Shown piece after piece: positions 716 through 29,905 of a DNA stretch of 31,676 bases (positions are counted from its first letter, which is position 1; every line of letters begins with the position of its first letter). Position numbers and translations under genes: made by a program. The notes under the pieces were generated by a model. That model worked only from the letters and a program-made list of their open reading frames with translations, did not search any database and was not told the DNA's origin. The stretch comes from Burkholderiales bacterium (GTDB taxonomy: Bacteria; Pseudomonadota; Gammaproteobacteria; Burkholderiales; Casimicrobiaceae). The stretch is taken from assembly GCA_031257235.1 (NCBI GenBank), contig JAIRPA010000067.1, positions 1 to 31,676 on the forward strand, in the 5' to 3' direction.

Positions 716-844
716 AAAAAATCGTCGGGGTTTTGGTCTCCACTAACTTTGCTTCGCAAAGTAAGTTCCGCCCCAACCAAAGGTTGTCCCGCGATTTTTT
801 GGTAACTCCAACCGCCCAAAAGTAGGGGTTTACTTTTGGGCGAA
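716..844 (+). repeat. Double-hairpin element copy 1 (56-nt insertion in the loop of hairpin 1)
   Basis: AAAAAA TCG T CGGGG [731-786] TCCCG CGA TTTTTT GGTAACTCCAA C CGCCCAAAAGTA GGGGTT TACTTTTGGGCG AA. Confidence 0.85.
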
Positions 845-2122
845 TACCTGATTCCTGAAATCCTGACACCAAAACACCCGCTCCCCGTGGTAGGGCATCT
901 GCGCGGCAGCCTCCACGGCGTCCCCGATCACAAGAATGGACGGTTTCTCACACGCCGCCGCCATCTCGGTCAAGGAAGCCAGCGTTCCGATCACGGACTT
1001 TTCTTTATCCGACCCGATCTTGGACACAAATGCGCAAGGCGTGGAAAGCGCGACCTGATGATCAATGGCGCTTTGTTGTATCTCGCGCGCAAAACTCATT
1101 GCCATCAATACGATCACCGTATAAGGTTTTGACCGAACCACCGACATCCAATCATCGTTGAATCTTCCGCCGCGCAAGTGCGCAGACACCACCAACGCGC
1201 CGGAGGCAACATCGCGCAGCGTCACGGGAATGCCGGACGCCACCGCCCCCGCCAACATGGAAGAAACCCCGTTGATGATATCAACGTTAATGTGGTGACG
1301 GGCAAGCATGGAGGCTTCATCAAACATTCTTGCAAAAATCGACGGGTCTCCCCCTTTCAATCGCCCGACGGTATAACCTTGACGCGCGTAATTCAGCAAT
1401 AAGGCGTTGATTTCTTCCTGCGTTTTGGTCGCGTGCCCTTTTTCTTTACCCACGGATATTTTTATACAATCAGCAGGCAGTAAATCCACCACGGATTTGC
1501 CCACCAAGCCGTCAATCAACGCCACATTGAGTGTCGGCAAGGCTCGAATGGCCGCCAGTGTCAAGTGTTTGACGTGACCGGGTCCGCAACCGATTAAATA
1601 GACTTTTTCGCCCTTAGGGGTTTGCGGCGCAAAAGGCGCAACTTTGGCGCGTTTGTTCCGCAACGTTTGATAGAAGGACTTGGGTAATTCGGGGACGCAA
1701 AGTTTGATCACGTCACGAATTTTTTGCGCGTAGGAGGGCGAAGCACCGCCGGTACTCACCGACACGCAAAGATCGTGGTTTCGGTACGTCGCGCCAAAAT
1801 AAAAATCACAGTATTCGGGAACGTCCACACAGTTGAGCCAATAACGATAGTGTTTTCGGTGATTCCATAACCATTGCGATAACGATAAATCTCCGGTGGC
1901 GTTGATCACCACATCAAAGGCGTCCGCTCCCTTTAAATCCTCTTGATCAAATGCTTTTAAAACAACAGGCAAATGATGAAAATACGGATCACGAATACTT
2001 GTTGCCATGACGGTTAATGAAGAATCACTCTCCAAAATCACTTTGGCTTTTTGCGCGGCAACCCTCCCCGCTCCGATTAAGAGGATTTTTTTAGGCGTGA
2101 CCGCAATCGGGAGTATGTTCAT
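830..2122 (-). CDS. cysG: Siroheme synthase (precorrin-2 dehydrogenase/ferrochelatase fused to uroporphyrinogen-III C-methyltransferase)
   Basis: N-terminal Rossmann motif LLIGAGRVA, NCVDVPEYCDFYF and VSTGGASP. The methyltransferase half has VYLIGCGPG and LKGGDP. It is the last gene of the sulfite-reductase operon, with an ATGA overlap with sir. Confidence 0.9.
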   Translation of the reverse strand: MNILPIAVTPKKILLIGAGRVAAQKAKVILESDSSLTVMATSIRDPYFHHLPVVLKAFDQEDLKGADAFDVVINATGDLSLSQWLWNHRKHYRYWLNCVDVPEYCDFYFGATYRNHDLCVSVSTGGASPSYAQKIRDVIKLCVPELPKSFYQTLRNKRAKVAPFAPQTPKGEKVYLIGCGPGHVKHLTLAAIRALPTLNVALIDGLVGKSVVDLLPADCIKISVGKEKGHATKTQEEINALLLNYARQGYTVGRLKGGDPSIFARMFDEASMLARHHINVDIINGVSSMLAGAVASGIPVTLRDVASGALVVSAHLRGGRFNDDWMSVVRSKPYTVIVLMAMSFAREIQQSAIDHQVALSTPCAFVSKIGSDKEKSVIGTLASLTEMAAACEKPSILVIGDAVEAAAQMPYHGERVFWCQDFRNQVFAQK

Positions 2123-4488
2123 TTTTTCCTTATCTTAACGTGCCACACATCGCCGACTTTGTCTTGCGATAAGATGGCGTGCCCTTCGTTGGCCACCGAT
2201 TGCGGCACGTTATCAATCGGCGCGCCGTCGTCTAACACAATTTCCAAAAGCTCCCCGCTTTTCATCTGCGCCAAATCTAATTTGGTTTTGACAAAGTTCA
2301 TCGGGCAGGCAACCCCGCGATAATCTTTAAAACGGTTCACCGGCGGTGTGGCGAGGGGTTGCGCCTTAACGCCTAAGGTTGAGGCTTCTCCCTTGTTGGG
2401 TTGATCCTTTGAATTTTCTATCTCTGCACTTCTTGCCTGCCCCTCCCCTGTGGAGGGACGATTCACCGCAAAAGAAAGAGTATGATCCATCGTTTGATAA
2501 AGCGCGATCACTTCACGCGCAAGATCAATCACTTTGGCAGTAGGCGCGCCATTAAGCTCGTCTATGTATTGAGTGCCGATATAACCTTTGTCGATAAAGT
2601 AAAGGCGGAAGGCTTTCAACACCGCTTCTTCCTGACGCGAATCATCGCCTTGCGTGACCAATAACATCCGCGCCGCCAAAAGCCGTATGGTGCGCAACGC
2701 CGTTTCATCTTGCGGTGCGTTTAAAAGTTCGGTTAAGGCTTTTTTGTCCGCCTCGATCAAATCATACATGCCCGCGCTGCATTCGCCCGTGCCGCGTCCT
2801 TTGATGGAAAAAAGCGTTTTTGCCGAATAATCAAAATACGGATTTTTATCGTCGTCAAAATCGGGAATGTCGGATAATTGATCGGCGACGGCTTTCACGG
2901 TTTGCTCACCGGTATCGTCGATCCAGTCGGAAAAAGTGCGGTAGCCGGGCTTGACCGAAAGCCATGATTTCATCACCTCCACAACAAATTGCGGCAAATG
3001 AAAAGCACTGATGTCCGCGACTTTACGCGCAAACCGCGTATTATTTTCGCCGGTTTTGGCGCCGACCAAGACGTTATAGGCAGGATAAGGCACACCGTTT
3101 TTACGCAAAAGTTTCCCAAAAAAACCCAAGTCGGCAATGGCGTGTTTGCCACAGCTATTGGGGCACCCCGACAAATGAATTTTGATGTCCGAAAGCGCGT
3201 CTAACGCAAGATCGGATTGCGTCAAGGCTTTTTCAATCGGTTTTAACGCGCCGCGCGGAATAGTCACCCCCAGCTGGCAGGTGGCCGCACCCGTGCAAAC
3301 AACGATATTGCCGATCACCGGTGCTTTGACGGATAAAGGTGCCAATTGTCGGATTAAAGGGTACAACGCCATGACCGACGATGCCGTTAAATTGCGTAAG
3401 TACGCGTTTTGATCGGCGGCAAACCGAATCACGTCGTGGTGATCGGTGAGCTTTGCGAGTTGATCCGCCAATTGAACGGCAAAATCGGCGTGAATATCGC
3501 CCAAGCTCAACGGGAGCTTAACCAAATAATAGCCTTTTTGTTTTTGAGGAATCACATAACGGTTCCACCACAAACGCTCTTCTTCATTGAGAGGCGGCAA
3601 GGCATCATCGGCAAGCGGCGTGACTTCTGATAGGGGCGATAAAGTGAGCGGCTTTAGCCCTTGCGCGCGCAAGGCGGACATCTTTTCACGGACTAACGCT
3701 TTGAAGGTATCAAAACCCAAGTCCTCCACCAAAAAACGAAGCCGCGCGTGGTGTTTATTTTTGCGATTGCCTTTTTCATTGAATAATTCTTTAATGGCCT
3801 GCGCGACGCAATAAATGTCTTCCTCCGGCAAAAAGTCGATTAAAAGGTCACTCAATCGGGATTTTGCGCCCATCCCTCCGGCAATCCAAACGCCAAACCC
3901 GCGTTTGCCGTCTTTGATTTTGGCGATGAATCCCACATCGGAAAACGACGCGCCGCTTAAATCTTGGGTAGACCCGGAAAAAACAATTTTATATTTGCGC
4001 GGTAATTGATACGAATCTTTCAAAGACAACATCGCTTCGGTCAGCGCGACGGCGTGCGGCGTGGTATCAAACACTTCGTGTTGAGACACGCCTGCGTCAA
4101 AGTCCGCCATGATGTTGCGCACGGTATTGCCCCCGCCGCCGCGCCCCGTTAATCCCACCTGATGCAAGGCGTCAATGATCGTCAACAATTGAGGATGCGA
4201 CACCTGATGAATCTGCGCGCCGGCGCGAGTGGTGACATGAACGCGCTTGTCTCCGTAACGTTGCGCAAGCTCGCCCAACACACGCAATTGCGCGGGCGAA
4301 ATCAGCCCGCCGGCAAGTTTGACCCGCACCATATAAGTATCGGGATCGCGTTGCTCATAAATACCAAACGGAACGCGATACGTTTTGAACGCAACCGCGT
4401 CTAATGAGCCTTGGGCAAAATCACGATACTGCTTGGAAAAGGTATTAAAGTCTTCGTGGACTTCTTTGGGAATTGCATAACCGGTCAT
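2119..4488 (-). CDS. sir: Sulfite reductase hemoprotein (NiR/SiR family, siroheme/[4Fe-4S]) with a C-terminal TusA/SirA-like domain
   Basis: HVTTRAGAQIH, LPRKYKI, CTGAATCQLG...SGCPNSCG cluster/siroheme ligands. The C-terminal DYRGVACPMNFVKTK is TusA-like. Context is sulfate assimilation. Confidence 0.88.
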   Translation of the reverse strand: MTGYAIPKEVHEDFNTFSKQYRDFAQGSLDAVAFKTYRVPFGIYEQRDPDTYMVRVKLAGGLISPAQLRVLGELAQRYGDKRVHVTTRAGAQIHQVSHPQLLTIIDALHQVGLTGRGGGGNTVRNIMADFDAGVSQHEVFDTTPHAVALTEAMLSLKDSYQLPRKYKIVFSGSTQDLSGASFSDVGFIAKIKDGKRGFGVWIAGGMGAKSRLSDLLIDFLPEEDIYCVAQAIKELFNEKGNRKNKHHARLRFLVEDLGFDTFKALVREKMSALRAQGLKPLTLSPLSEVTPLADDALPPLNEEERLWWNRYVIPQKQKGYYLVKLPLSLGDIHADFAVQLADQLAKLTDHHDVIRFAADQNAYLRNLTASSVMALYPLIRQLAPLSVKAPVIGNIVVCTGAATCQLGVTIPRGALKPIEKALTQSDLALDALSDIKIHLSGCPNSCGKHAIADLGFFGKLLRKNGVPYPAYNVLVGAKTGENNTRFARKVADISAFHLPQFVVEVMKSWLSVKPGYRTFSDWIDDTGEQTVKAVADQLSDIPDFDDDKNPYFDYSAKTLFSIKGRGTGECSAGMYDLIEADKKALTELLNAPQDETALRTIRLLAARMLLVTQGDDSRQEEAVLKAFRLYFIDKGYIGTQYIDELNGAPTAKVIDLAREVIALYQTMDHTLSFAVNRPSTGEGQARSAEIENSKDQPNKGEASTLGVKAQPLATPPVNRFKDYRGVACPMNFVKTKLDLAQMKSGELLEIVLDDGAPIDNVPQSVANEGHAILSQDKVGDVWHVKIRKK

Positions 4489-4883
4489 ACCGTCACCTCC
4501 AAGGTTTCCGGCTCAACCACGCCGCCGACAATTTTAAAAGATCGAACATCCGGCTTGTCTCCCGCAAGAGACACGATGACATAGTGAATCCCGGGATCAA
4601 ACGCAAGCCTGATGTCTTCCCTCGAAGGACGCGCGGGCGACGCCGGATGTGAATGATAACACGCCACCGGCTTTAGTCCTTGTAGCCTCGCGGCTTTGAG
4701 CGCGGCAAATTGCTCTTTAGGATCAAACGAAAAATGTTCTTCGCTTTGATCCACATTCGTCAACGGGCGCGCGGATTGTGCCGTATCCCCGTTGCCGATT
4801 AAATACCCGCACGCCTCAATGGGTGCGTCTTTTTGCGCGTGCGCGATGATTTGCGCCAACGCATCTTTCGTGATTCTAAGCAT
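4485..4883 (-). CDS. JAB1/MPN/Mov34 (JAMM) metalloprotease, Mec+/HcyD-like
   Basis: EACG near the N-terminus and the JAMM motif HSHPASPARPSRED; adjacent to ThiS-like and ThiF-like genes. Confidence 0.92.
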   Translation of the reverse strand: MLRITKDALAQIIAHAQKDAPIEACGYLIGNGDTAQSARPLTNVDQSEEHFSFDPKEQFAALKAARLQGLKPVACYHSHPASPARPSREDIRLAFDPGIHYVIVSLAGDKPDVRSFKIVGGVVEPETLEVTV

Positions 4884-5688
4884 GGTTTTTTAACTCACAT
4901 AAAGGTTGTTCATAATCGGTCAAAGAAATTTTTTGAGGGTCGGCGCAAACGCGGCAACGCGGATTTTTCTTAAACTTCGCACGTTGAAACGCCATGGTTT
5001 TTGCGTCAAACCTTAATAAGGTATCCGTCAATAAGCTGCCCACTCCCGTGAAATACTTCAACGCTTCTGCCGCTTGAATGGTGCCCAGCATTCCGGCAAC
5101 CGCGCCTAAAATGCCGGCGGAGGAACAAGTCGGCACCAAGCCCGGAGGCGGCGGCGCGTTAAAAGCACAAGCGTAACACGCGGATTGACCGGGATAAATG
5201 GTCATCGTCTGCCCGGCAAAACGCAAAATGCCGCCGTGCGAATAGGGTTTGGATAACAAAACACACGCGTCGTTAATTAAAAACTTAGCGGCGAAATTAT
5301 CCGTGCCGTCAATAATAAAATCGTAAGGCGCGATGATCGATTCAATGTTCTCGGCAGATAACATCGTATGATAATCATCCACTTGAATGGAAGGATTGAT
5401 AGCGAGCATCTTTTGTTTTGCAGACACCACTTTGGGCGTGCCGATGTCGGCGGTGGTGTGAATCACTTGGCGCTGCAAATTGCTCAAGTCCACCACGTCA
5501 CCGTCCACAATACCGATTCTCCCCACGCCGGCCGCTGCAAGATACAACGCAATCGGCGAACCCAATCCGCCCGCGCCGATAATCAATACCGACGCATTGA
5601 ATATTTTTTCCTGCCCTTCGATCCCGATATCTTCTAAGATGATGTGGCGGGAGTAACGCTCTAAGGCTTCATCCGTAAATAATGTCAT
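4876..5688 (-). CDS. ThiF/MoeB/HesA family (E1-like) sulfur-carrier adenylyltransferase, no rhodanese domain
   Basis: ERYSRHIIL, GAGGLGSP, SNLQRQ, DGTDNF, and CxxC pairs (CYAC, CRVC). The start was moved from the ORF track's 5742 to ATG 5688, which overlaps the upstream stop (ATGA). Confidence 0.92.
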   Translation of the reverse strand: MTLFTDEALERYSRHIILEDIGIEGQEKIFNASVLIIGAGGLGSPIALYLAAAGVGRIGIVDGDVVDLSNLQRQVIHTTADIGTPKVVSAKQKMLAINPSIQVDDYHTMLSAENIESIIAPYDFIIDGTDNFAAKFLINDACVLLSKPYSHGGILRFAGQTMTIYPGQSACYACAFNAPPPPGLVPTCSSAGILGAVAGMLGTIQAAEALKYFTGVGSLLTDTLLRFDAKTMAFQRAKFKKNPRCRVCADPQKISLTDYEQPLCELKNHA

Positions 5689-5894
5689 TGCCCGCCACCC
5701 ATGAAATAGAGAAAGTCCACCACATCGCCTTCTTTGAGCCACGTCGTCGCGTAATCGGGTTTGCGCAAAAATTCTTCGTTTAATTGTATCGAGACCATGT
5801 CGGGTTGATCGACCGATTCAATTGTTAATAAGTCGGAAATGTTGATTTTTTCCTGCGTGAATGTTTTTTCTTCGCCATTGATGATGAGTTTCAT
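5685..5894 (-). CDS. ThiS/MoaD-family ubiquitin-like sulfur carrier ending GGG-Q
   Basis: 69 aa, MKLIINGEEK...LKEGDVVDFLYFMGGGQ. RBS (AGGAG) upstream. Confidence 0.92.
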   Translation of the reverse strand: MKLIINGEEKTFTQEKINISDLLTIESVDQPDMVSIQLNEEFLRKPDYATTWLKEGDVVDFLYFMGGGQ

Positions 5895-5902
5895 CGTGTC
5901 TC

Positions 5903-7282
5903 CTAAATAGTATAGTCTTGGTTTTTGTTGCCCAAATCGGGAAAACGATGCGGAAAATGTTTCCGCAACAATAAAAATAAGGCATCTTCAAAATCCGCGT
6001 CGGGTCGCTCTCCTTCCGTCGGATGCGTCAAGCCTTGTAATACAATCCCGCCGCCGGCGGCATTATAACCGTCTACAATCACAAACCGCCCTAAGGTAGG
6101 ATTATCTTTAAACGCCGTCAGCGCCATAGGGTCTTGGAACTTTAAGATCACACAACCGCATTCATTGCGATTCAACCCGTAATAATCCTCCGCCCCTGAA
6201 TCCTCTCCTAATTTTCGCTCAATCTTTTCTAACCAAACGCGCGCTTTGGCGCTCCCCAATTTTAAAAGATACGGGCGGTCAAACGTTAAAGGTTGTTGCC
6301 CCAACCATATAATATTCGCCTCGATTCTTTGGGTGACGATGATCGGAGAAGGTTCGTCGGATTTCACCATGACCTCGCCACTTTTGACATAAATATCTTC
6401 CACCAAAGTCAGACCGGTGGCTTCATCGGTGGAAGACTGTGATTTTGTCGGCGCGTTCCATGATTCTATAGATTTGATATGCGCTTCTTTATTGGACGGC
6501 AAAAACCGAACGGGATCACCAATGCGAATCGTGCCGCTGGTCACGGTGCCCGCGTAAATTCGGCGATCGTCGTTATCGTTACTGAAGCGATAAATATCTT
6601 GCAAGTGCATCGAAAAAAATGCCTCATGATCCGCTACGGAATTTTGAAAACTGTCCAATAATTCCAATACCGTTTTTCCCTGATACCAGCTCATTTCTTC
6701 GGCGCGCCGCGTTAAGTTTTTGCCTTCACGCGCCGATACCGGAACAATGGCGTAAGGTTTAACATTCAGCGTGGCAAGATACGCCTCGTACTCGTTTTTA
6801 ATTTGACGAAACACACTTTCATCGTAATCAAAACGATCCAATTTATTGACCAACACAATCACTTGCTCGATGCCTAAAAGCGACAACAACAAACCATGTC
6901 GACGTGAATTTTCGGCAACCCCGGAGAGCGCGTCAATCACCAAAACAGCCGCGGCGGCACGCGATGCCCCGCTCAACATATTGCGCAAAAACTCGATGTG
7001 CCCGGGAGCGTCGATCAACACATATTCCCGTTTCTCGCTTTTGAAAAAGACACGCGCGCTGTCAATGGTAATGCCTTGTTTTTGTTCGTCTTCCAAGGCA
7101 TCCAATAACATCGAATATTCAAAGACGCGACCGTTTTCGGCGCACGATTGCCGAATCTTCTCAATTTTGCCGGAGGGCAAAGAATGCGTGTCGGCTAAAA
7201 GCCTTCCGACCAACGTGCTTTTGCCGTGATCCACATGCCCGGCAATCACAATGTTCATCCGTTCCAAAAGTTGTTCAGACAT
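5903..7282 (-). CDS. cysN: Sulfate adenylyltransferase subunit 1 (GTPase), no APS-kinase domain
   Basis: [24 protein letters not shown] and SAREG GTPase motifs; C-terminal LRKHFPH. Confidence 0.93.
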
Positions 7283-8160: not shown

Positions 8161-8827
8161 GAGACTTCCTTGTGTGTAATCCGCATTCTTTATGTTCCGG
8201 GTTTTCCCACCACCAGCGACCGGCGCGAATGTCTTCGTTTGCCGCGATGGCGCGCGTGCAAGGCGCGCAACCGATGCTTCTAAAACCTTCCCGATACAAG
8301 GCGTTGTTCGGCAACGAATGCGCGTTCATATAATCCGTCACGGCATCCTCTGACCAATGAGCCAGCGGATTAAATTTTAAACATTGAAACGATTCATCGT
8401 ATTCGACGACATGTATGTTTTCGCGCGTCACGGATTGCGCCGCGCGAAGCCCGGTCACCCATGCGGTTTTTCCCGCAAGCGCACGCGCCAATGGGCGCAC
8501 CTTGCGCACGTTGCAACAACGCTTTCGGTTTTGCAAACTTGCCCGCATTGCCCATTCGTCGGCAAAATCGGCTTCCAAAGATCGAAGTTCGTGTTCATCC
8601 GGTGTATATCGGTGAATGGTTAAATTGAAGAAGGTTTCAATCTGACGATGCAGGTCAAGGCTTTCTTTGAAATGCCTGCCCGTGTCTAAGGTGAACACTT
8701 CAAAAGGGCGCGTCAAACGCTCTTTTAATAAATGAAGCACCACCACGTCTTCGGCTTGATAACTCAACGCTAACGCAATGTCGCCTTCTAATTTGTTCAA
8801 TAAATGAAAAGCAAGATCAAATGACAT
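8153..8827 (-). CDS. cysH: Assimilatory APS reductase ([4Fe-4S] type, CysH family)
   Basis: LDTG, CC-x-x-RKVRPL, SIGCAPCT and C-terminal ECGLH. The CC...CxxC ligands indicate APS rather than PAPS specificity, consistent with the absence of cysC. Confidence 0.9.
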
Positions 8828-11583: not shown

Positions 11584-12627
11584 TTATTTGGACGGCTGAT
11601 AAATGCGGTCAAATTCTCCGCCGTCGGCAAAATGTTTTTTTTGCGCGGCGTGCCAACCGCCAAACACTTCGTCAATCGTGATTAACGATACTTTCGGAAA
11701 TTGATTTTCAAATGATTTGGCAACGTCGGGATCACGCGGACGATAATAGTTTTTGGCGGCGATGGTTTGCCCTTCTTTAGAATATAAGTATTCTAAATAG
11801 GCTTTGGCGACTTCCGTGGTTTTCTTTTTTTCGGTGACTTGATCCACCCAAGCCACTGTCGGTTCGGCTAATATGGATAAGCTCGGCACCACAATTTCAA
11901 ATTGATCTTTGCCGAGTTCGTCAATCGCCAAAAAGGCTTCGTTTTCCCATGCCAACAAAACATCCCCGATCCCGCGACGAACAAACGTATTGGTCGAGCC
12001 GCGCGCGCCGGAATCCAACACCGGGACGTTTTTAAAGATCGCTTTCACAAATTCGCGTGTTTTGTCTTCATTGCCGAATTTTTTGAGCCCGTACCCCCAC
12101 GCCGCCAGATAATTCCACCGCGCCCCGCCGGAGGTTTTGGGGTCAGGCGTGATGACTTTAATGTCACTGCGTGTTAAATCGTCCCAATCTTTGATTTTTT
12201 TCGGATTGCCCGCGCGAACCAAAAACACAATCGTTGACGTGTAAGGCGCGCTGTTGTTTTTCAAGCGCGTCTGCCAATCCGCCGGCAGTTTTTTGGTTTT
12301 TTCGGCAATCGCGTCAATGTCGTACGCCAGCGCCAGCGTCACCACGTCTGCGTCCAAGCCGTCAATCACGCTGCGCGCCTGTCCGCCCGACCCGCCGTGC
12401 GACTGTTTAATGATGACTTCATTTCCCGTTTGGGCTTTGTAATGCTTTTGGAAGGCTTCGTTGTAAGCGCGATAAAGCTCACGCGTCGGATCATACGAAA
12501 CATTCAAAAGCTCGTAGGACGCGGCAAATGCCGTCGTCGCAAAGAAGAATCCCGCAATAATGCCTATCGCGCCTTTTAACACCGGCGCGATGAGCCCTTT
12601 TTTTACTCCTGCTGATTGATGAATCAT
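11584..12627 (-). CDS. sbp: Sulfate ABC transporter periplasmic binding protein
   Basis: Signal-peptide-like N-terminus, then [41 protein letters not shown]. Confidence 0.93.
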
Positions 12628-12680
12628 GGCAACACCCTTTACATGTCAATTAAAGATAACCACTCGAACTCTTAAAACAT

Positions 12681-12700
12681 AGTAAACCATATTGTTTACT
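12681..12700. promoter_or_regulatory. Near-perfect 20-bp palindrome upstream of the sulfate operon (candidate operator)
   Basis: AGTAAAC-CATATT-GTTTACT. It overlaps a minus-strand TACTAT (-10-like) about 55 bp before the sbp start. Confidence 0.45.
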
Positions 12701-12741
12701 TTTTGTATTCTGACGTTTTATTTTTGGGGTGTCAAGGGGGG

Positions 12742-12776
12742 GCAGGTATCAGGAATCAGAAGTCAGGAATCAGGGA
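12742..12776 (+). repeat. Heptamer tandem array x5
   Basis: GCAGGTA TCAGGAA TCAGAAG TCAGGAA TCAGGGA. Confidence 0.9.
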
Positions 12777-12777
12777 G

Positions 12778-12853
12778 TTCGGCAAAAAGTAAAAACCTAC
12801 TTTTTGCCGGTCATGATTTGCAAAAAAGTACGGGCAAAGCCCGATACTTTTTT
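12778..12853 (-). repeat. Double-hairpin element copy 2
   Basis: Minus strand: AAAAAA GTA T CGGGC TTT GCCCG TAC TTTTTT GCAAATCATGA C CGGCAAAAAGTA GGTTTT TACTTTTTGCCG AA. Confidence 0.9.
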
Positions 12854-12873
12854 GCAAAAACGACGATAAAACC

Positions 12874-12994
12874 GGATTGCGGATCAAGTCCGCAATGACG
12901 CCGCCTAAAGGCGGCGTGTGGGTTTCAGGGATCAGGGATCAGAGCTCGTCATTCTGCGCGTAGCGAAGCGAAAGCAAGCGAAGTCGCAGAATCC
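12874..12994. repeat. Central mosaic: two CGTC-type palindromes, a GC hairpin and a 3-unit heptamer array
   Basis: GGATTGCGGA-TCAAG-TCCGCAATGACG (12874-12900); CGCCGCC-TAAA-GGCGGCG; TCAGGGA x2 plus TCAGAGC (12925-12945); CGTCATTCTGC...GCAGAATCC (12947-12994). Confidence 0.8.
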
Positions 12995-13010
12995 ACACCG
13001 CCTTTTCCTC

Positions 13011-13081
13011 AAAAAATCGTCGGGGTCCCCCCGCGATTTTTTTGGAAATTTCAACCGGCAAAAAGTACCCCTTTTGCCGAA
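13011..13081 (+). repeat. Double-hairpin element copy 3
   Basis: AAAAAA TCG T CGGGG TCC CCCCG CGA TTTTTTT GGAAATTTCAA C CGGCAAAAAG TACCC CTTTTGCCG AA. Confidence 0.9.
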
Positions 13082-13082
13082 T

Positions 13083-13112
13083 AAAAAAACGCGGCATTGC
13101 GCCGCGTTTTTT
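13083..13112 (-). terminator. Intrinsic terminator (possibly bidirectional) after rplI
   Basis: AAAAAAACGCGGC-ATTGC-GCCGCGTTTTTT, 18 bp past the rplI stop. Confidence 0.75.
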
Positions 13113-13130
13113 GGATCACTTGTCAAAACA

Positions 13131-13589
13131 TTACCGCGATACGGTTTCACCCAAAACACTGACGTTAATGTTGACTAAGACATCGGTATGCAACTGCAAC
13201 GCCACCTGATGATCGCCGATTTGTTTCAACGGACCTTCGGGCAGACGCACCATGTTTCTTTCCAAAGAAAAGCCGCTGCCTTTGAGCGCGTCCACAATGT
13301 CGGCATTGGTCACGGAACCGAACAACCGACCATCCACGCCCGCGCGTTGAACGATTTGCACCGTCAACCCTTCAAGTTTGCCGGCAAGTTCGGTGGCTTG
13401 CGCCAATTTACCCGCGGCAAGCTGCTCCAACTCTGCGCGTTTTTCTTCCAAAAGTTTGATGTTTTCCGGCGTGGCGCGCTTTGCTTTGCCTTGCGGGATC
13501 AAAAAATTGCGCGCATAGCCGGGTTTGACTTTAACCACGTCGCCCAATGCGCCGACATTGACGATTTTTTCAAGCAATATAACCTGCAT
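13131..13589 (-). CDS. rplI: 50S ribosomal protein L9
   Basis: [36 protein letters not shown]; GRLFGSVT. Confidence 0.97.
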
Positions 13590-13597
13590 GTTGCCTC

Positions 13598-13888
13598 CTA
13601 CGAATGATGACGATCAGTGTATGGCAACAACGCCAAAAACTGCGCGCGTTTGATTGCGGTGGAAAGCTGACGTTGATAACGCGCTTTCGTTCCGGTGATG
13701 CGAGCCGGCATAATTTTGCCGTTCTCTTGAAGGTATTCCTTCAAAACATCCACATCTTTGTAGTCAATTTGTTTGACCTTTTCCATCGTAAAACGACAGA
13801 ATCTTTTCCGCTTGAAAAGCGGATTCCCGCGATCGCGGTTTTGTTGCTTGTCGGCATCTTTGCCTTTTCTTCCCATCATACGAGCCAT
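13598..13888 (-). CDS. rpsR: 30S ribosomal protein S18
   Basis: KRKRFCRFT...IDYKDVDVL...[13 protein letters not shown]...[13 protein letters not shown]. The start was placed at ATG 13888, which follows a GAGGAA RBS. Confidence 0.95.
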
Positions 13889-13913
13889 TTTGTTTTCCTC
13901 TCGTTTCAATAAT

Positions 13914-14207: not shown

Positions 14208-14234
14208 GGGGCGACCCGCTTCAACAATAAGCGT

Positions 14235-14762: not shown

Positions 14763-14767
14763 TGCGG

Positions 14768-14796: not shown

Positions 14797-14870
14797 GTAG
14801 CACTCGCCCCAAAAGGTTTAGCCTGACGGGGGTTTGCGCTTTTCGGGACGGACAAGTCCGTCCCCGACGC

Positions 14871-14941
14871 AAAAAAGTAACCGGCTTCGCCGGTACTTTT
14901 TTGGAAATATCAACCGGCAAAAAGTACTACTTTTTGCCGAA
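14871..14941 (+). repeat. Double-hairpin element copy 4
   Basis: AAAAAA GTA A CCGGC TTC GCCGG TAC TTTTTT GGAAATATCAA C CGGCAAAAAGTA C TACTTTTTGCCG AA; preceded by the hairpin GGGACGGAC-AA-GTCCGTCCC. Confidence 0.9.
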
Positions 14942-14950
14942 CCCTCCGAA

Positions 14951-17938: not shown

Positions 17939-17974
17939 CGACATTGCGGCGCCCGAAGGAAGTGACCCGCAATC
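17939..17974 (+). repeat. CGTC-type palindrome (CGAC variant)
   Basis: CGAC-ATTGCGG...CCGCAAT-C. Confidence 0.6.
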
Positions 17975-17987
17975 TGTTCGTTTCCAC

Positions 17988-18099
17988 AAAAAACCATCAG
18001 GGTCTCCCTGTGGTTTTTTGGAAATACTCACCGGCAAAAAGTACCACTTTTTGTCGTTGAGTGTAGGGTTTTACTTTTGGGCGAACCCCTGATCCCTGA
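17988..18099 (+). repeat. Double-hairpin element copy 5 with duplicated right arm, plus 2 heptamers
   Basis: AAAAAA CCA T CAGGG TCT CCCTG TGG TTTTTT GGAAATACTCA C CGGCAAAAAGT ACC ACTTTTTGTCG TTGAGTGTAGGGTTTT ACTTTTGGGCG AA CCCCTGA TCCCTGA. Confidence 0.88.
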
Positions 18100-18102: not shown

Positions 18103-19194
18103 CTACGCATCGTACCGAATGACGTATTGCGCGTCATCGCGGTCGACCGTGCTGGCTTTACTGCATAAAAAAGAATCCCAACCCAAACGCGCGCCGGTGT
18201 GATTGTCCAACACGCATCCGTTGATATCCTCTTTGGCGAGGATCAGACGAACCTCATACTCATAAGTAATACCGCCCATCAAGAGTAATAGTTTTTTCAA
18301 CGCCTCTGCGCCATGACCGCCCGGAAGAAAATCTTCAAACTTTTTTGCGTTTAAAGGTCCCAACTTCACGCGCAGACGTAAATTTCGCTGCCAAACCCGT
18401 TCACCGATGAACGCCGATCGCCCCAAATAAGCCGATTCGCCGCCCAATTCGGTGCGGCAATTCTCCGGCACGACGTACCACGAGCCGACAAACTGTTCGA
18501 TCGAAAACGTGATCCCGAAATACTCTGCCAAAGCGCGCTGTAAAAATTTGGCGGCGGGCGGACGTTGCTTGACGGCGGTGGCGTATCGCGCCAACGCGCT
18601 GTCGCACACCTCGCCTTTGCCGCCGCGAAGTCGATTGCGTAACCCCGAATGCCCTAAGCCTGCAATGCTCAACAACGCCGAAAGATATTGCTCGCCCGTT
18701 CCCGATTCGTGCATCAACGCCAAGCGGTATTTTTTCCACGCGTGGTAAAACAAATACGCCGCGCGATTGGAAAAAATATCAAAAAACGACCGTGCGCCGG
18801 GGTCTCGCTTTTGCGCCTCGAAGGTGGCAAGCCTTTCCGAATAATGGAAGGGCAACGCCCCTTGAACCCCCAATAAACCGAAAAACGTCGGCGTGATTTC
18901 TACGGTTTCGATTTCGGCATTTCTAATGGCTTCCGATAATTCTTCGGGGCTCAATACATGAAAGTTTTCGGCGTAGGCTTTTGCCGCCGCAATCTCACTT
19001 GCCGGAAACGAAAGCGAGGTTGAATTGATGAATCGCAAATGTTGTTGTTCAAAGGCTTTGATGTCTTCTTTTTGCGTGGACGCGGCGCGCCAACGCTCCA
19101 AGAGGCGAACCGCCTGAAAGAATTGAAAACGATACGGTTCCCTGAAGAACCGTTCGATTACACTAAATTCAATCCGCCGCTGCATGGCTGACAC
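18103..19194 (-). CDS. tssG: T6SS baseplate subunit
   Basis: YRFQFFQAVRLLE, SLSFPASEI, FFGLLGVQGALP, FFDIFSNR, LGWDSFL; follows tssF. The start is GTG 19194 or ATG 19185. Confidence 0.92.
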   Translation of the reverse strand: MSAMQRRIEFSVIERFFREPYRFQFFQAVRLLERWRAASTQKEDIKAFEQQHLRFINSTSLSFPASEIAAAKAYAENFHVLSPEELSEAIRNAEIETVEITPTFFGLLGVQGALPFHYSERLATFEAQKRDPGARSFFDIFSNRAAYLFYHAWKKYRLALMHESGTGEQYLSALLSIAGLGHSGLRNRLRGGKGEVCDSALARYATAVKQRPPAAKFLQRALAEYFGITFSIEQFVGSWYVVPENCRTELGGESAYLGRSAFIGERVWQRNLRLRVKLGPLNAKKFEDFLPGGHGAEALKKLLLLMGGITYEYEVRLILAKEDINGCVLDNHTGARLGWDSFLCSKASTVDRDDAQYVIRYDA

Positions 19195-20993
19195 CGCATG
19201 AGTTCCGTGCCGTCATCCGAAAGAATGACCAGACGGGTGAAACTGTTGATGTGAACATAAAGCCCAAAAAAACGATCCAGCACCGAGATGAAGGTATGCA
19301 GACTCGTGCCGACAAAATGATCGGGATTGATGGTTAATCTGATCTCAATCCCTTTAATGAACGTTGCAAACGGCTCGCCTTCTAACCATAACGTCGAGAG
19401 CGCGTGATCAATGCCGATCAATCCTTCGATCTGCCGCGTGATCGCGGACGACATGGATAAATTGTAAAGATGCAGGGTTTCTTTGAGTGCCGACAAACCG
19501 GTATCCACCAGCGACAAATGGTTCAGCGACAAATGAGAAATCAAGCGCCAGTGCATCCCTCGCCCTTTGGCAAACCGAACGCTGGGAGTAGGACGGCGCA
19601 AAAGCCGAACCGCGTCCACGACATCCCCTTCCATCAGTAAGTCGCCCTCGCGCTGGCCAATGGACAAAAACGTGGGCAAATCCCGATTGGTGCACGTCAT
19701 CTTGATACTCAAGGTATCCACCCGCGGCACCATCGGGTTGTAATCCGAATCGACAATGCTGATCACCGTTTCGTAGCCGGGGCTTCGCTCACTCATGGCG
19801 GCGTCGCGTGTGGCCGTCCAATACCCGCCTTTTCTGTCCTCCCCTTCCCCGTGTCTCAACGAGAAAAACGGTCGAACTTCCGCCACGTGCGTGGCTTCCG
19901 CCTGCTCTTGAACTTCAAAGACTTTATCAATGCTGTACACATCAAAGCCGTTGCTGTAGCGCCCGTCCGCCAGCGCCGGATACTCTGTCATCATTTGCGT
20001 GACACGAATCGGCTCTCCTTGATACTCAAACAAATTCACAATCGGCGTACAACCTAACCGAATGTTGTCTTTGGACGTGGTTTCCATCAACCGCGCTTCG
20101 TTGGAATCCGCCGAGATGCCGTGCGTCAAAAGATGCAACGTGAAGGAATTGGCGCGCCCGATAAGTTCATAGAGTTCCTTCCACGGAATATCAAAAAAGT
20201 TGAATTTTTCCGAAAAGGCAAAATACTCGGCAAGTAAACGATACGCCGGGTGCGAGCTTGCGGGAAGATCAATCAACGCCTCATTTTCTTCAAAGCCGCA
20301 AGACGCCAGCGGCACTTTCTCCAAGCGTTGCCATTTTCTTTCGGGATACTCCACAAAAGCGTGATTGACCTTCATAAACAAAGTGTCGCGCAACATCGCC
20401 ACCAATGAGGCTTCCCCGTGTAAGTAACATCTCAGTTTGGAAAGATCAATGTCGTTAAAGGTCAATGCCTTATCGGGCAACTCGAATTTAATGGAAAGTC
20501 TGCCGGTGGTTTCCGGCGGAAAAGACACGCCCTGGGGCAACATCGGCGAAGAAAAATACTGCGCAGACGCCACCATGATCGGCGACAAGGTGACATCGTA
20601 AACCGTCCGAAATTTACACGGCACTTTGCGCACGGGTTTTGACGTGACATAAGTGCCGCGCGGAATCAGCGTCGTTTCTTTGAGCTCGCCGATTCTTGAG
20701 CCTAAATCAAATTGCACAATGGAAGACGAAGGAAACGGGCGCATGTAATGCGGATACAGCACCTCAAGAAGCGATTCGGTAAATTCGGGATAATCGTCGT
20801 CGAGTTTTTTGCTGACCCGCGCCGTCAAAAGCGCGAAGGATTCGATCATCCGCTCAACATGAGGGTCTTCACACGCCTCGCCGGTGAGCCCCAAGCCCGC
20901 CGCAATTTTAGGATAGCGTTTTGCAAACTCCCGGGACGTGCCGCGCACGAACGCCAACTCGCGCTCGTAATAGGGAAGCAGTTCTTCAATCAT
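19158..20993 (-). CDS. tssF: T6SS baseplate subunit
   Basis: LLPYYEREL...YPKIA...EDPHVERMIESFALL, LGCTPIVNLF, TNRDLP, WRLISHLSLNHLSL. Confidence 0.95.
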   Translation of the reverse strand: MIEELLPYYERELAFVRGTSREFAKRYPKIAAGLGLTGEACEDPHVERMIESFALLTARVSKKLDDDYPEFTESLLEVLYPHYMRPFPSSSIVQFDLGSRIGELKETTLIPRGTYVTSKPVRKVPCKFRTVYDVTLSPIMVASAQYFSSPMLPQGVSFPPETTGRLSIKFELPDKALTFNDIDLSKLRCYLHGEASLVAMLRDTLFMKVNHAFVEYPERKWQRLEKVPLASCGFEENEALIDLPASSHPAYRLLAEYFAFSEKFNFFDIPWKELYELIGRANSFTLHLLTHGISADSNEARLMETTSKDNIRLGCTPIVNLFEYQGEPIRVTQMMTEYPALADGRYSNGFDVYSIDKVFEVQEQAEATHVAEVRPFFSLRHGEGEDRKGGYWTATRDAAMSERSPGYETVISIVDSDYNPMVPRVDTLSIKMTCTNRDLPTFLSIGQREGDLLMEGDVVDAVRLLRRPTPSVRFAKGRGMHWRLISHLSLNHLSLVDTGLSALKETLHLYNLSMSSAITRQIEGLIGIDHALSTLWLEGEPFATFIKGIEIRLTINPDHFVGTSLHTFISVLDRFFGLYVHINSFTRLVILSDDGTELMRCQPCSGGLNLV

Positions 20994-21490
20994 AATCTCA
21001 CCTCATCATGCCCTGACCTAAAAACGCTGCGGCTGACGGCATACTGCAACGTTGAAGGTTTTAACGTGGCGTCAAACGCCACCGGCTCATACAATTCGCC
21101 GACATTCAAAACCGCCGTGATGGCAAAACAAAGCGTTGCGGTGGCGCGGGTATCCACCAAAAGTTTCACTTTAACGCTTTTTAATCTCGGCTCATGGCGC
21201 TCCACCGCCTTCTCAAGCGAGGAGCAAATCGCCGTTCGATCGGTAAAACTCGCCAAACTTTTTCCGGAAAAATCGTTGACGCCGTAAGTCAGAATAGACC
21301 TTTGACAATGTTTGAATTTGGCAAGATTTTCTTCGGTGAACTGCATTCGCGTGTTTAAAAGCGACTCAATATCCTGCGCCACCGAGTCTTTGAGCTCTTC
21401 GATGCTCAAACGACGCACCAAATAATTGGCGCCATATTCACGCGGGAAAATCTTATCAAACAGCGAGGGCTCGAAACCTTTGGCAGACAT
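20990..21490 (-). CDS. tssE: T6SS baseplate gp25-like subunit
   Basis: FEPSLFDKI, DIESLLNTR, SILTYG, ERHEPRL; ATGA overlap with tssF. Confidence 0.92.
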   Translation of the reverse strand: MSAKGFEPSLFDKIFPREYGANYLVRRLSIEELKDSVAQDIESLLNTRMQFTEENLAKFKHCQRSILTYGVNDFSGKSLASFTDRTAICSSLEKAVERHEPRLKSVKVKLLVDTRATATLCFAITAVLNVGELYEPVAFDATLKPSTLQYAVSRSVFRSGHDEVRL

Positions 21491-21531
21491 GATTTTATTC
21501 GGGAAACGGGTTAAAAAAAGCGGAAGGTGGG

Positions 21532-21540
21532 ATTATAACA
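21532..21540 (-). promoter_or_regulatory. Extended -10 promoter element for tssEFG
   Basis: TGT-TATAAT on the minus strand, about 40 bp before the tssE ATG. Confidence 0.5.
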
Positions 21541-21693
21541 ACCTGTAAAAGATAAGTCCCTCTTTGGCGTAAAAAAAGCCCAAATTTTCGGTCAAACGCG
21601 CCGAATGCGCGTCACAAACGGGCAAACCTGTCGAAAGGTCGAAGCGAGGCTTGCCTCGCCCGCATGCGCCTTGCCTGCCCTTGCCTTTCCTGC

Positions 21694-21769
21694 AAAAAAT
21701 CGACGGGGTCCCCCCGCGATTTTTTGGAAACCTCAACCGCCCAAAAGTAGGTTTTCACTTTTGGGCGAA
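21694..21769 (+). repeat. Double-hairpin element copy 6
   Basis: AAAAAA TCG A CGGGG TCC CCCCG CGA TTTTTT GGAAACCTCAA C CGCCCAAAAGT AGGTTTTC ACTTTTGGGCG AA. Confidence 0.9.
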
Positions 21770-21774
21770 TCTAT

Positions 21775-21808
21775 AAAAAAGGCTGTGCGTCTTTCGACCA
21801 CAGCCTTT
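21775..21808 (-). terminator. Intrinsic terminator after hcp
   Basis: Minus strand: AAAGGCTGTG-GTCGAAAGACG-CACAGCC-TTTTTT. Confidence 0.75.
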
Positions 21809-21827
21809 GTTTTTCCCGCAAAAAAGA

Positions 21828-22385
21828 TTAAACGGAATATGTCTTGTCGTTCTTCGTCAAGCTCCAAGCACCTTGGGTCACGCCGTTTTGATTGCCGCCG
21901 ATTTTCTGCTTGGTGTATTTCCATTGAATGGCGGCATATTTCAGTTTGAAGCGATCCGTCGGAATCGTGGAAACTTGCTTTGAGCTGTCTAACGCCGCCT
22001 CTGCGGAATCCGCCGCGTCGATCTGAAGACCGGCAACGGTTTCCACGTCGCAAATAATGACGTGTTTGAGCTTGACTTCGAGGTATTTAACGCGATTCCC
22101 TTCGCCGTCCGCACGCATAAAGTCGATGGTCACTTCGTCAAACGTGGTGCCGCCGGAAGAATGCTGATACAATAACGGGCTGACGAGATCAACGTCTTTG
22201 GTGAGGATCATCGCGCCATGTTCGGTACGCTCGGAAGTATGCCCGCCGGAGGTGGACGCCGTCACGGAACGGGGTTGGTGAATGCTTTGCTTGAAGGAAC
22301 TGATCTCAATCCACTCGGCATGGTCTTTGTCATTGGACTCGCCTTTGATGGAAGGATTTCCAAATTGTAAATATATATCTTTCAT
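21828..22385 (-). CDS. hcp: T6SS tube protein Hcp
   Basis: IKGESNDKDHAEWIEI, TASTSGGHT, GGTTFDEVTIDF, LKYAAIQW, GAWSLTKNDKTY; AGGAG RBS. Confidence 0.95.
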   Translation of the reverse strand: MKDIYLQFGNPSIKGESNDKDHAEWIEISSFKQSIHQPRSVTASTSGGHTSERTEHGAMILTKDVDLVSPLLYQHSSGGTTFDEVTIDFMRADGEGNRVKYLEVKLKHVIICDVETVAGLQIDAADSAEAALDSSKQVSTIPTDRFKLKYAAIQWKYTKQKIGGNQNGVTQGAWSLTKNDKTYSV

Positions 22386-22500: not shown

Positions 22501-22627
22501 TAAACCGCCTTAAAAGAATCAAAAGATGATTATTTTTATGGTATTTTTTGGACTTCGTCCCTTTTTTGTCGGGGGCGGATAAGAACTTTCCCGCGTTAGC
22601 TATGCTTTTATCGTTTTTTTTGTTGAG

Positions 22628-22700
22628 CGCCCAAAAGTAAACACCTACTTTTGGGCGGTTGAAGTTACCCAAAAAGTACGGGCAAAGCCCGATACTTTTT
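22628..22700 (-). repeat. Double-hairpin element copy 7
   Basis: Minus strand: AAAAA GTA T CGGGC TTT GCCCG TAC TTTTT GGGTAACTTCAA C CGCCCAAAAGTA GGTGTT TACTTTTGGGCG. Confidence 0.9.
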
Positions 22701-22721
22701 GGTAAAAACGGCGGTAAAACC

Positions 22722-22812
22722 GGATTGCGGGTCGGAGCCCGCAATGACGACGCGCTTTGCGCGTCCGCCGCCTTTGGCGGCGTTTTTCGGGCGAAGCAAG
22801 CCTCGCCCCTAC
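22722..22812 (-). repeat. Central mosaic: CGTC-type palindrome, GC hairpins and a GTAG-type palindrome
   Basis: GGATTGCGGG-TCGGAG-CCCGCAATGACG (22722-22749); CGCCGCC-TTT-GGCGGCG; minus-strand GTAG-GGGCGA-GGCTTGCT-TCGCCC (22789-22812). Confidence 0.8.
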
Positions 22813-22814
22813 GC

Positions 22815-22914
22815 AAAAAAGGATCAGGCTCTGCCTGTCCTTTTTTGGAAATTTCACTTCCGGCAAAAAGGTCCACTTTTGGGCGTCGAGTGTAGGTTTT
22901 CACTTTTTGCCGAA
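22815..22914 (+). repeat. Double-hairpin element copy 8 with duplicated right arm
   Basis: AAAAAA GGA T CAGGC TCT GCCTG TCC TTTTTT GGAAATTTCACTT C CGGCAAAAAG GTCC ACTTTTGGGCG TCGAGTGTAGGTTTTC ACTTTTTGCCG AA. Confidence 0.88.
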
Positions 22915-23058
22915 CGATCCCCGAACCCTGTTTACAATCCGACCAAAGAAAAGCACAATACCCGTTTTTTAATCCGAGCAACATTCGGAATATGGGGCGC
23001 GGATCGGCGCAAACCTTGTGCCGTCGGCGTCAAACTCTCATTTCTTAGGAACATGTTT

Positions 23059-27848: not shown

Positions 27849-27888
27849 GTTTTTTCTTCCTGACTTTTTTCCTGAAACGGCATGAGCC

Positions 27889-29508: not shown

Positions 29509-29543
29509 ACAGGAATCAGAGGTCAGAGGTCAGGGATCAGGGT
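29509..29543 (+). repeat. Heptamer tandem array x5
   Basis: ACAGGAA TCAGAGG TCAGAGG TCAGGGA TCAGGGT. Confidence 0.9.
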
Positions 29544-29619
29544 TTCGGCAAAAAGTGAAAACCTACTTTTTGCCGGTGTATGCTTCCCAAAAAGGACAGG
29601 CAAAGCCTGATCCTTTTTT
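29544..29619 (-). repeat. Double-hairpin element copy 9
   Basis: Minus strand: AAAAAA GGA T CAGGC TTT GCCTG TCC TTTTT GGGAAGCATACA C CGGCAAAAAGT AGGTTTTC ACTTTTTGCCG AA. Confidence 0.9.
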
Positions 29620-29639
29620 GTAGGAAATGCGGGAAGACC

Positions 29640-29770
29640 GGATTGCGGGTCTGCCTGCCGCAGGCGGACTGCCCGCAATGACGAGGTGAGAGATGGTCGC
29701 TAAATTCGATACACCGCGTTTGAGGCAAGCCCCCTTTATAAAAGGGGGTGGCTACGAAGTCGCCGGGGGT
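29640..29770. repeat. Central mosaic: CGTC-type palindrome with a nested hairpin, and a C5/G5 palindrome
   Basis: GGATTGCGGG-TCTGCCTGCCGCAGGCGGACTG-CCCGCAATGACG (29640-29683); CCCCCTTT-ATA-AAAGGGGG (29730-29748). Confidence 0.75.
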
Positions 29771-29792
29771 TTGTAACATTCGCCGTTTATAC

Positions 29793-29905
29793 AAAAAAGT
29801 ATCGGGCTTTGCCCGTACTTTTTTGCAAATCATGACCGGCAAAAAGTAGGGTTTTACTTTTTGCCGAACCCGCTGATCCCTGATCCCTGAAACTCCGATC
29901 CCTGA
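29793..29905 (+). repeat. Double-hairpin element copy 10 plus heptamer array
   Basis: AAAAAA GTA T CGGGC TTT GCCCG TAC TTTTTT GCAAATCATGA C CGGCAAAAAGTA GGGTTT TACTTTTTGCCG AA, then CCGCTGA TCCCTGA TCCCTGA ... TCCCTGA. Confidence 0.9.

Follow-up and report, generated by a model that had tools for sequence, protein, structure and literature searches.

We describe here a two-hairpin repeat in a 31,676-nt stretch of DNA (the window), which is contig JAIRPA010000067.1 of assembly GCA_031257235.1 from a bacterium of the family Casimicrobiaceae (Burkholderiales). The window carries ten copies of this non-coding unit of about 90 nt. On balance we consider it probable that the unit is a lineage-amplified intergenic mosaic repeat of the REP/BIME type, similar to the pneumococcal SPRITE elements, which descends from an old element of soil relatives and whose copies are used as terminators. 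The genome to which the window belongs (G000, with the window as contig C111) was derived from a termite gut metagenome. This metagenome-assembled genome (MAG) comprises 1.74 Mb in 218 contigs, is 85% complete and has a GC content of 51%. A first-pass annotation of the window had described ten copies of a double hairpin with conserved shape and covarying sequence, and all ten could be read in the sequence with this anatomy. As had been proposed there, we built a covariance model (CM), trained on six window copies and nine copies of other genomes. It recovered all ten window copies at E <= 1e-10 and was scanned against this genome and its relatives.

The core of the unit consists of a 5' flank, A6, hairpin 1, T6, a spacer and hairpin 2. 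In the window copies hairpin 1 opens with A5-6 and a 3-bp helix (TCG, GTA, CCA or GGA). A single base of the 5' arm then stays unpaired, after which come a 5-bp helix (CGGGG, CGGGC, CCGGC, CAGGG or CAGGC), a TYY triloop and T5-7. These helix types, the loop and the loop insertion of copy 1 are as previously annotated, and so is the unpaired base, the bulge, present in all ten copies as T (8) or A (2). The insertion in copy 1 marks a subfamily with 28 copies genome-wide. A spacer of 11-13 nt, typically 11 nt, leads to hairpin 2. This palindrome of 11-12 bp around AAAGTAGG..ACTTT has the arms CGGCAAAAAGT or CGCCCAAAAGT and carries an invariant GTAGG at its apex. The two hairpins are mutually unrelated in sequence. 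Single-sequence RNA folds contain both hairpins on either strand, with z-scores from -3.8 to -6.9 relative to shuffles. The boundaries of the unit were obtained from an all-against-all comparison of 205 units. Similarity has a sharp onset 16-20 nt (or 6-10 nt) ahead of the 3-bp helix and stops 65-74 nt after it, i.e. 2-3 nt past hairpin 2. With edges at about -18 and +70 the core is therefore about 90 nt long. The 5' flank has a consensus around CGCCTTTCCTAC, and upstream of the unit there is almost always another GC-rich hairpin module, of which at least three types occur. In the copy-to-copy comparison the unit ends were not inverted repeats of each other, and ten solitary copies had no flanking direct repeats that would represent a target-site duplication (TSD).

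Genome-wide we found about 300 strictly paired hairpin-1 sites and 231-248 complete units in which hairpin 2 follows at the fixed distance. A loose hairpin-2 pattern gave 226 matches, compared to 0 for the reversed control pattern. The density is about 0.13 units per kb, and the units are almost all intergenic. Together with other hairpin modules and heptamer arrays they form 501 repeat blocks, which cover 5% of the assembly and occupy 52% of the convergent, 36% of the divergent and 22% of the co-directional gene gaps. Repeat blocks lie within 150 nt of 95 of the 436 contig ends, and the fragmentation of the MAG is probably due in part to the repeats. In the reads of four runs contigs are interrupted at the repeats, and their joints link one copy to another. 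Logan contigs from another, independent termite-gut sample carry the repeats at the same sites, which are thus present in the raw data of at least two samples, and bins that contain the repeat have a depth 15-50x that of unique sequence. The elements are thus not an assembly artefact.

The distribution of the unit among genomes is patchy. Eleven congeners, of which seven are 90% complete or better, contain no unit as judged by pattern and CM. An exact-pattern scan with one genome per species detected the A-type hairpin 2 in three other MAGs: G031 (JAITRP01), G032 (JAITEO01) and G033 (JAITCV01). Their isolate names, Nm470 and Roe453, suggest a termite-gut survey as their source. These three are far from the window's genome, with amino-acid identities of 57-61% for RplI and 79% for the H+-pyrophosphatase; the latter is comparable to the 81% found for a soil member of the family. 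Many copies are present in G031 and G032, whereas none were found in 39 relatives of theirs. The high-copy genomes are thus probably all termite-gut MAGs. Among 325 other genomes of the family, 18 contain one to four exact matches to the C-type hairpin 2, and with the CM we counted 42, 16 and 8 copies in the soil Casimicrobiaceae G246, G308 and G097, respectively. The core of hairpin 1 alone occurs in more than 120 contigs, nearly all of them from MAGs of uncultured Burkholderiales/Casimicrobiaceae. We obtained no exact hairpin-2 match among the phages of IMG/VR and no blastn match of the unit among the plasmids of PLSDB. At the gathering threshold of Rfam the window yielded only a tRNA, and a search of ten loci together with soil copies yielded nothing at the elements at E <= 1, in agreement with the earlier statement that the element could not be assigned to a named class. 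None of 14 papers that mention Casimicrobiaceae deals with repeats. The case for mobility is based on this distribution: within a single genus 0 copies stand against at least 230, and a second clade from the same habitat shows a like contrast. The earlier proposal of a non-autonomous element or structured motif family fits a structured, non-coding, high-copy and patchily distributed unit; the nuclease to which it had been linked is considered below.

Hairpin 1 with its A6/T6 flanks has the sequence features of an intrinsic terminator on both strands in all regular window copies. The first-pass annotation had set the element apart from ordinary terminators, which do not need a fixed bulge. This contrast is not supported, since hairpin 1 has the exact shape of a bidirectional intrinsic terminator and adjoins stop codons. 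In 128 units the hairpin-2 side points towards a gene 3' end, at a median distance of 15 nt from the stop codon, while in 88 units it points towards a gene start at a median distance of 88 nt. Placement is alike in G031 and G032, with 33 units at 5 nt from the stop versus 16 units at 76 nt from the start. Due to the stop-proximal position of hairpin 2, the typical gene end here reads stop codon, hairpin 2, spacer, hairpin 1 and U-tract. Where neighbouring units are inverted, hairpin 1 faces inward in 27 cases and outward in none (p = 1.5e-8). From the sequence we infer that hairpin 1 would act as a bidirectional Rho-independent terminator here, and the amplified copies are probably used as terminators.

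The soil relatives carry the unit in few copies, as an old element with conserved positions in the spacers of ribosomal-protein (r-protein) operons, and most of these copies lie at junctions of the cluster of r-protein, RNA polymerase and tuf genes. Within G308, 11 of the 16 matches fall into a 43-kb region that holds the r-protein, RNA polymerase and tuf genes. The occupied junctions are rpoA|rplQ, rpsK|rpsD, one inside spc, tuf|rpsJ, fusA|tuf, rpsL|rpsG, rpoB|rpoC, rplL|rpoB, tuf|tRNA-Trp and tRNA|tuf and, outside the cluster, atpH|atpA; relative to the genes five units are in sense and five in antisense orientation. We compared four orthologous junction pairs across genera, among them rpsL|rpsG (G061, G308), tuf|tRNA-Trp (G328, G308) and tRNA|tuf (G097, G308). 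The units had the same orientation and compensatory changes in their stems. Hairpin 1 of the soil copies is flanked by paired extensions (GAATCG...CGATTC plus covarying bases) instead of A/T tracts. Copies inside these operons thus lack a U-tract where read-through is needed. In the window's own genome the r-protein junctions carry no unit.

The pairing of the stems was assessed within the window's genome and across genomes. Using hairpin 2 alone as anchor, which leaves the count free of selection for pairing, we found the full set of eight pairs, in the bulged geometry, at 143 of 190 hairpin-1 sites. Random re-partnering of the 5' and 3' arms gave a mean of 30 and a maximum of 51 fully paired sites. 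The variation of hairpin 1 in this genome amounts to nine discrete stem haplotypes, i.e. subfamilies, and a few copies are chimeric, with 5' and 3' arms from different subfamilies and loss of pairing. For the cross-genome set we used 78 distinct sequences from the window, the three other termite-gut MAGs and many soil MAGs. In this alignment, which was fitted to the model, 97.3% of cells are paired, whereas shuffling leaves 75.5%, and both partners vary in 20 of 26 pairs. The covariation score of 0.519 compares to 0.115 in shuffles and to no more than 0.09 when partners are slid. Within G308 as well as between orthologous junctions of different genera, the two hairpins differ by compensatory changes in their basal stems, while the hairpin tips, AATCG-W-CNGGC...GCCNG-CGATT and AAAGTAGG..T..ACTTT, are invariant or nearly so. 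Of the covariation that had been reported for the window, the compensatory change is thus real across genomes, but within this one genome it reduces to the nine haplotypes with their chimeras.

Within subfamilies the deviation from consensus is 33% in the spacer and 29% in the 5' flank, but 2% in the A-tract, 0.7% in the T-tract and 3.7% at the bulge. Figures for tracts, bulge, loop, flank and spacer are unbiased, whereas those for the stems are partly circular as copies were picked for pairing. Copies that are old yet perfectly paired in three quarters of the cases speak for selection on shape at individual loci. The bulge was found in 43 of 44 soil-relative copies (T 20, A 18, G 4, C 1), in line with the fixed bulge noted in the window, but it is missing from 23 of 24 copies in G031 and G032 and from the single aligned copy of G033. 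It is a conserved, lineage-specific feature of the Casimicrobiaceae form and is not needed for amplification.

Taken as a mechanism, the reading that we favour would run as follows. The ancestral unit would be a host-maintained structured spacer element, recognised via its conserved hairpin tips. In the termite-gut lineages a form with A6 and T6 on the two sides of hairpin 1 would have multiplied and spread without target duplication, for which recognition of single-stranded DNA (ssDNA) hairpins or recombination are candidate routes. A transcript would then end with the stop codon, hairpin 2, hairpin 1 and the U-tract, with hairpin 1 as the bidirectional terminator, and the copies would be kept in shape by selection at each locus.

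Several observations weigh against this reading. No mobilising enzyme was found in the searches for Y1, TnpB and IS110 proteins. No insertion event was caught: the sites are identical in the two samples, which are about 1% apart, and the empty-site alleles for which the first-pass annotation had suggested to look did not turn up in clean form, neither in the reads of the second sample nor in congener G002. The comparison with the congener covered 400 kb and six informative repeat-bearing gene pairs, among which there was one partial case of a filled versus a short spacer (C46). At the window's sites G031-G033 share no synteny in which an empty site could be recognised. Any burst must be old, since no two copies are identical and the identity to the nearest copy has a median of 90%. 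The orientation of the units relative to the genes is only moderately biased (65:40, p = 0.019), and blocks occupy a third of the spacers between divergent genes, where a terminator is not obviously needed. The reading also does not account for the function of hairpin 2.

A different account of the same history appears possible but rather unlikely to us. The soil unit would punctuate about ten r-protein/RNA polymerase/tuf junctions and atpH|atpA as a site that is recognised as DNA, either as a cruciform or as a single-stranded hairpin, by a conserved protein, e.g. a site of the gyrase or nucleoid-protein type in operons with very high transcription. The termite-gut copies would be a selfish amplification that took on a second use as a portable terminator for both directions. 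That recognition takes place on DNA is suggested by the combination of invariant tips, covarying basal stems and either orientation with respect to transcription.

We attach a similarly low probability to the idea that the units are non-mobile cis-regulatory elements of the host, either a structured RNA or a protein-binding DNA site, that arose by rare duplication or recombination and were each retained as useful. The soil copies, which occupy corresponding operon junctions in different genera with unchanged orientation and with compensatory changes, speak for this idea, as do the strong conservation of stems and A/T tracts relative to the spacer and the stability of the sites between the two samples. 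Against it stand the jump in copy number inside a single genus, from none to at least 230, and a second such contrast between G031/G032 and their 39 relatives. Copies lie in all kinds of spacers beside unrelated genes, and the r-protein junctions of the window's own genome are devoid of them. In addition, the chimeric stems, the tandem hairpin-2 modules and the loop-insertion subfamily resemble the dynamics of a repeat family.

The first-pass annotation had pointed to HUH/Y1 nucleases. In this scheme the units would be substrates of a RAYT or of the TnpA of IS200/IS605, which would read the bulged ssDNA hairpin and copy it without target duplication. The lack of both TSD and terminal inverted repeats (TIR), the bulged imperfect hairpin with its conserved apex and the invariant GTAGG of hairpin 2 are compatible with it. 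G.T wobbles on the unit strand outnumber A.C wobbles 48:21, and the type of wobble is independent of the strand of the neighbouring gene (Fisher p = 0.73; small numbers), a weak hint that one fixed strand folds or that a single-strand mechanism operates. Nevertheless, the Y1_Tnp domain (PF01797; Y1_Tnp/RAYT/IS200) was absent from four element-bearing genomes, namely G000 (85% complete), G032, G308 (98%, 16 copies) and G246 (93%, 42 copies), while the same search was positive in 6 of 14 control genomes. A co-distributed gene of this kind, for which that annotation had suggested to look, was thus not found there. In G031 the Y1 matches are fragments without flanking units, and the matches in G033, G061 and G097 are not tied to units. 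The amplified copies of G031 and G032 moreover lack the bulge. REPs have their GTAG at the foot of the palindrome, while the unit has it at the tip of the hairpin. The nuclease link, which is thus unsupported, seems improbable to us.

Other mobile sources were considered. An origin as IS200/IS605-derived palindromes was rejected, as the two hairpins are unrelated to each other and neither Y1 nor TnpB was found; the TnpB zinc-ribbon (PF07282) was absent from five genomes. IS110 (PF01548) occurs only in G031 and G032. An IS110-family gene in G031 (C102; L261:750-2800) lies between two head-to-head units, but the insertion is within a separate palindromic module, TTCAGCGGC..CTGAACCGCC, which is present on both of its sides. 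Since this one examined copy is inserted in another palindromic module between the units, IS110 was rejected as driver of the unit and is rather a tenant of the mosaic.

It is very improbable that the units, or the reverse-strand series of heptamers, hairpin 2, hairpin 1 and U-tract, are small-RNA genes, for instance GGA-rich protein sponges. On the reverse strand the heptamers would read UCAGGGA/UCAGGAA, followed by two hairpins and a terminator. Yet only 38 of 177 heptamer arrays adjoin hairpin 2, the repeat unit includes no promoter, more than 200 copies are implausible for small-RNA genes, and Rfam gave no match even at E <= 1. That hairpin 2 is an inverted pair of DNA-uptake sequences, like the DUS/USS pairs in terminators, has next to no probability. 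No word is more frequent in the genome than its 11-12-mer, which forms inverted pairs. Outside the repeat blocks, however, the word is rare, with 36 occurrences in 1.63 Mb where about 10 are expected. This is far below one per kb, and the word is not spread through coding sequence, so that the idea was rejected.

Judged by analogy of behaviour, the closest described system is SPRITE of pneumococci. This element measures about 105 nt, ends in AAAA and TTTT, contains a duplex of 18 bp with a U-rich tract, lies near 3' ends and between convergent genes, and has neither a TSD nor a matching transposase (PMC3049150). It occurs in 30 copies per 2.2 Mb, is patchy among related species and was suggested to be co-opted as terminator (PMC3049150). 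The unit shares with it the size of about 100 nt, the non-coding nature, the A-run/T-run ends, the long duplex, the long duplex's U-rich tract, the enrichment at 3' ends and in convergent gaps, the lack of a TSD and of a matching transposase, and the patchy occurrence among related species. It differs in having two distinct hairpins, the conserved bulge in Casimicrobiaceae, an about 10x higher density and old low-copy homologues at fixed r-protein operon positions in other genera. There is no sequence similarity, and the hosts belong to different phyla.

Like REP/BIME elements, the unit forms hundreds of extragenic imperfect palindromes that lie in mosaics, in both orientations, inside and between operons, and its mosaics host IS110-type insertions as seen in G031. 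REPs have been described as terminator/stabiliser elements of 3' untranslated regions (bioRxiv 10.64898/2026.03.23.713779) and were reported to bind gyrase and IHF (PMC3184786). Unlike in REP/BIME systems, a RAYT is missing from the four element-bearing genomes, a fixed pair of different hairpins at constant spacing takes the place of a single REP or doublet, and the A/T-tract flanks, which REPs lack, give the unit the shape of an intrinsic terminator. The intergenic mosaic elements of Neisseria (NIME/dRS3) and Rhizobium (RIME, with two large palindromes) consist of multi-hairpin modules. The unit resembles them in that it lies in intergenic arrays of several hairpin modules; GTCATT-stem-loop-stem-AATCC modules beside the unit and modules of the congener G002 (ATTCCCGCGAAGGCGGGAAT) have a dRS3-like look. 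These families are, however, not terminator-shaped, and no sequence relationship of the unit to them was seen, though no search was aimed at one. NIME is also mentioned in PMC3184786. With miniature inverted-repeat transposable elements such as the Correia element the unit has in common that it is short, non-coding, high-copy and intergenic and that such elements can carry terminators or promoters, but the TIR and TSD which define this class are missing, and an assignment to it was rejected. Three things are unusual about the unit: two different hairpins always occur as a pair, a bulge is conserved and, most notably, there are old low-copy homologues at fixed r-protein and RNA polymerase junctions.

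The unit adds an uncatalogued structured repeat family, outside Rfam, with a wide distribution in a large part of the Burkholderiales that has hardly any cultured members. Both ends of its history are visible, a rare element with conserved positions and compensatory evolution in the most highly expressed operons of free-living species on one side and independent bursts to hundreds of copies on the other. In the smaller termite-gut genomes the unit, going by its shape and placement, appears to supply terminators for much of the genome. It thereby offers a system for asking how functional hairpins turn into selfish repeats or the reverse, how reduced symbiont genomes gain 3'-end signals, and which protein reads the hairpin tips.

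The copies of the unit in the window and the modules next to them are listed in Table 1.

Table 1. Two-hairpin units and neighbouring modules in the window. Hairpin 1 is given as 3-bp helix, unpaired base and 5-bp helix; scores are those of the covariance model.
Feature	Position	Strand	Form and score	Context
Copy 1	698..845	+	TCG-T-CGGGG type; ~56-nt loop insertion in hairpin 1; hairpin 2 of CGCCCAAAAGT type; 76.8 bits	hairpin-2 end overlaps stop of siroheme synthase gene (830-2122, minus)
Copy 2	12777..12871	-	GTA-T-CGGGC; 99 bits	hairpin-2 side and heptamer array face start of solute-binding-protein gene (11584-12627, minus)
Copy 3	12993..13082	+	TCG-T-CGGGG; short-loop hairpin 2; 61.8 bits	head-to-head with copy 2; hairpin-2 side towards rplI 3' end; rplI also with its own terminator hairpin
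Copy 4	14853..14942	+	GTA-A-CCGGC; 77 bits; fold z = -6.7 and -4.5; hairpin 1 terminator-like on both strands	hairpin 2 ends 9 nt from pntB stop (14951); 5' side towards rpsF start
Copy 5	17970..18059	+	CCA-T-CAGGG; then partial second hairpin 2 to ~18092; 77.2 bits	end only a few nt from tssG stop (18103)
Copy 6	21676..21770	+	TCG-A-CGGGG; 96.8 bits	between tssE-like gene start (21490) and hcp 3' end (21828); hcp with its own terminator hairpin
Copy 7	22625..22719	-	GTA-T-CGGGC; 98 bits	hairpin-2 side towards hcp start
Copy 8	22797..22915	+	GGA-T-CAGGC; two tandem hairpin-2 modules; 55.8 bits	head-to-head with copy 7; hairpin-2 side towards H+-pyrophosphatase gene start (23053); promoter-like site 22931-22959 just past the copy
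Copy 9	29543..29637	-	GGA-T-CAGGC; 92.5 bits	hairpin 2 and heptamer array face DcuC-like carrier gene start (29337)
Copy 10	29775..29869	+	GTA-T-CGGGC; 95.9 bits; fold z = -5.0 and -5.6	head-to-head with copy 9, then heptamer array
Hairpin module outside the unit	12872..12900	-	CCGGATTGCGG..CCGCAATGACG hairpin	
Heptamer array	29873..29906	+	CTGATCC (Tandem Repeats Finder)	
Other heptamer arrays	615-649, 12743-12774, 12925-12942, 29510-29542			

The CCGGATTGCGG..CCGCAATGACG module also occurs at 22720-22749 and, with a nested hairpin, at 29638-29683, and genome-wide it precedes 81 of 231 units. The heptamer arrays (CTGAYYY) are a separate module, with 177 arrays in the genome of which 38 lie directly beside hairpin 2. 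A sigma-70-like site is located at 12735-12707, just past the heptamers of copy 2; in the window -35-like hexamers follow heptamer arrays both at this site and at 22931-22959. Upstream of rpsF in G031 (L156:4550-4620) and G032 (L158:150-200), a TATAAT box immediately adjoins CCTGAT heptamer-like repeats, and the heptamers may thus be elements close to promoters. The congener G002, which has no unit, possesses intergenic repeats of its own (C2:186300-186900), including inverted copies of GTCATTCCCGCGAAGGCGGGAATCC, which are similar in look to dRS3 of Neisseria and to the GTCATT-stem-AATCC modules beside the units of the window.

A fragment of a type VI secretion system (Hcp, gp25/TssE-like, TssF and TssG by Pfam) extends over 18103-22385 of the window, between pntAB and the H+-pyrophosphatase gene. 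Units flank this fragment on both sides and separate tssE from hcp, and the block had no nucleotide match in five congeners. The rpsF-priB-rpsR-rplI cluster and pntB are neighbours in the window (12627-14951) with only a unit between them and are found on separate contigs (C2 and C4) in G002. Repeat-filled spacers may be rearrangement junctions; a genome-wide comparison of repeats with synteny breaks was not significant (Fisher p = 0.087) and underpowered.

The window furthermore contains a sulfate-assimilation block (830-7282) with siroheme synthase, a CysN-like GTPase and a 789-aa sulfite/nitrite reductase that is fused to a C-terminal TusA domain. The terminal open reading frame at 2-421 has no Pfam match at E <= 1e-5. 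Within coding regions of the genome many 13-mers occur at least six times (e.g. at 3477-3489 and 8560-8572 of the window) and consist of GC-rich runs mixed with A/T runs, which indicates a strongly biased oligonucleotide usage that is unrelated to the repeat family.

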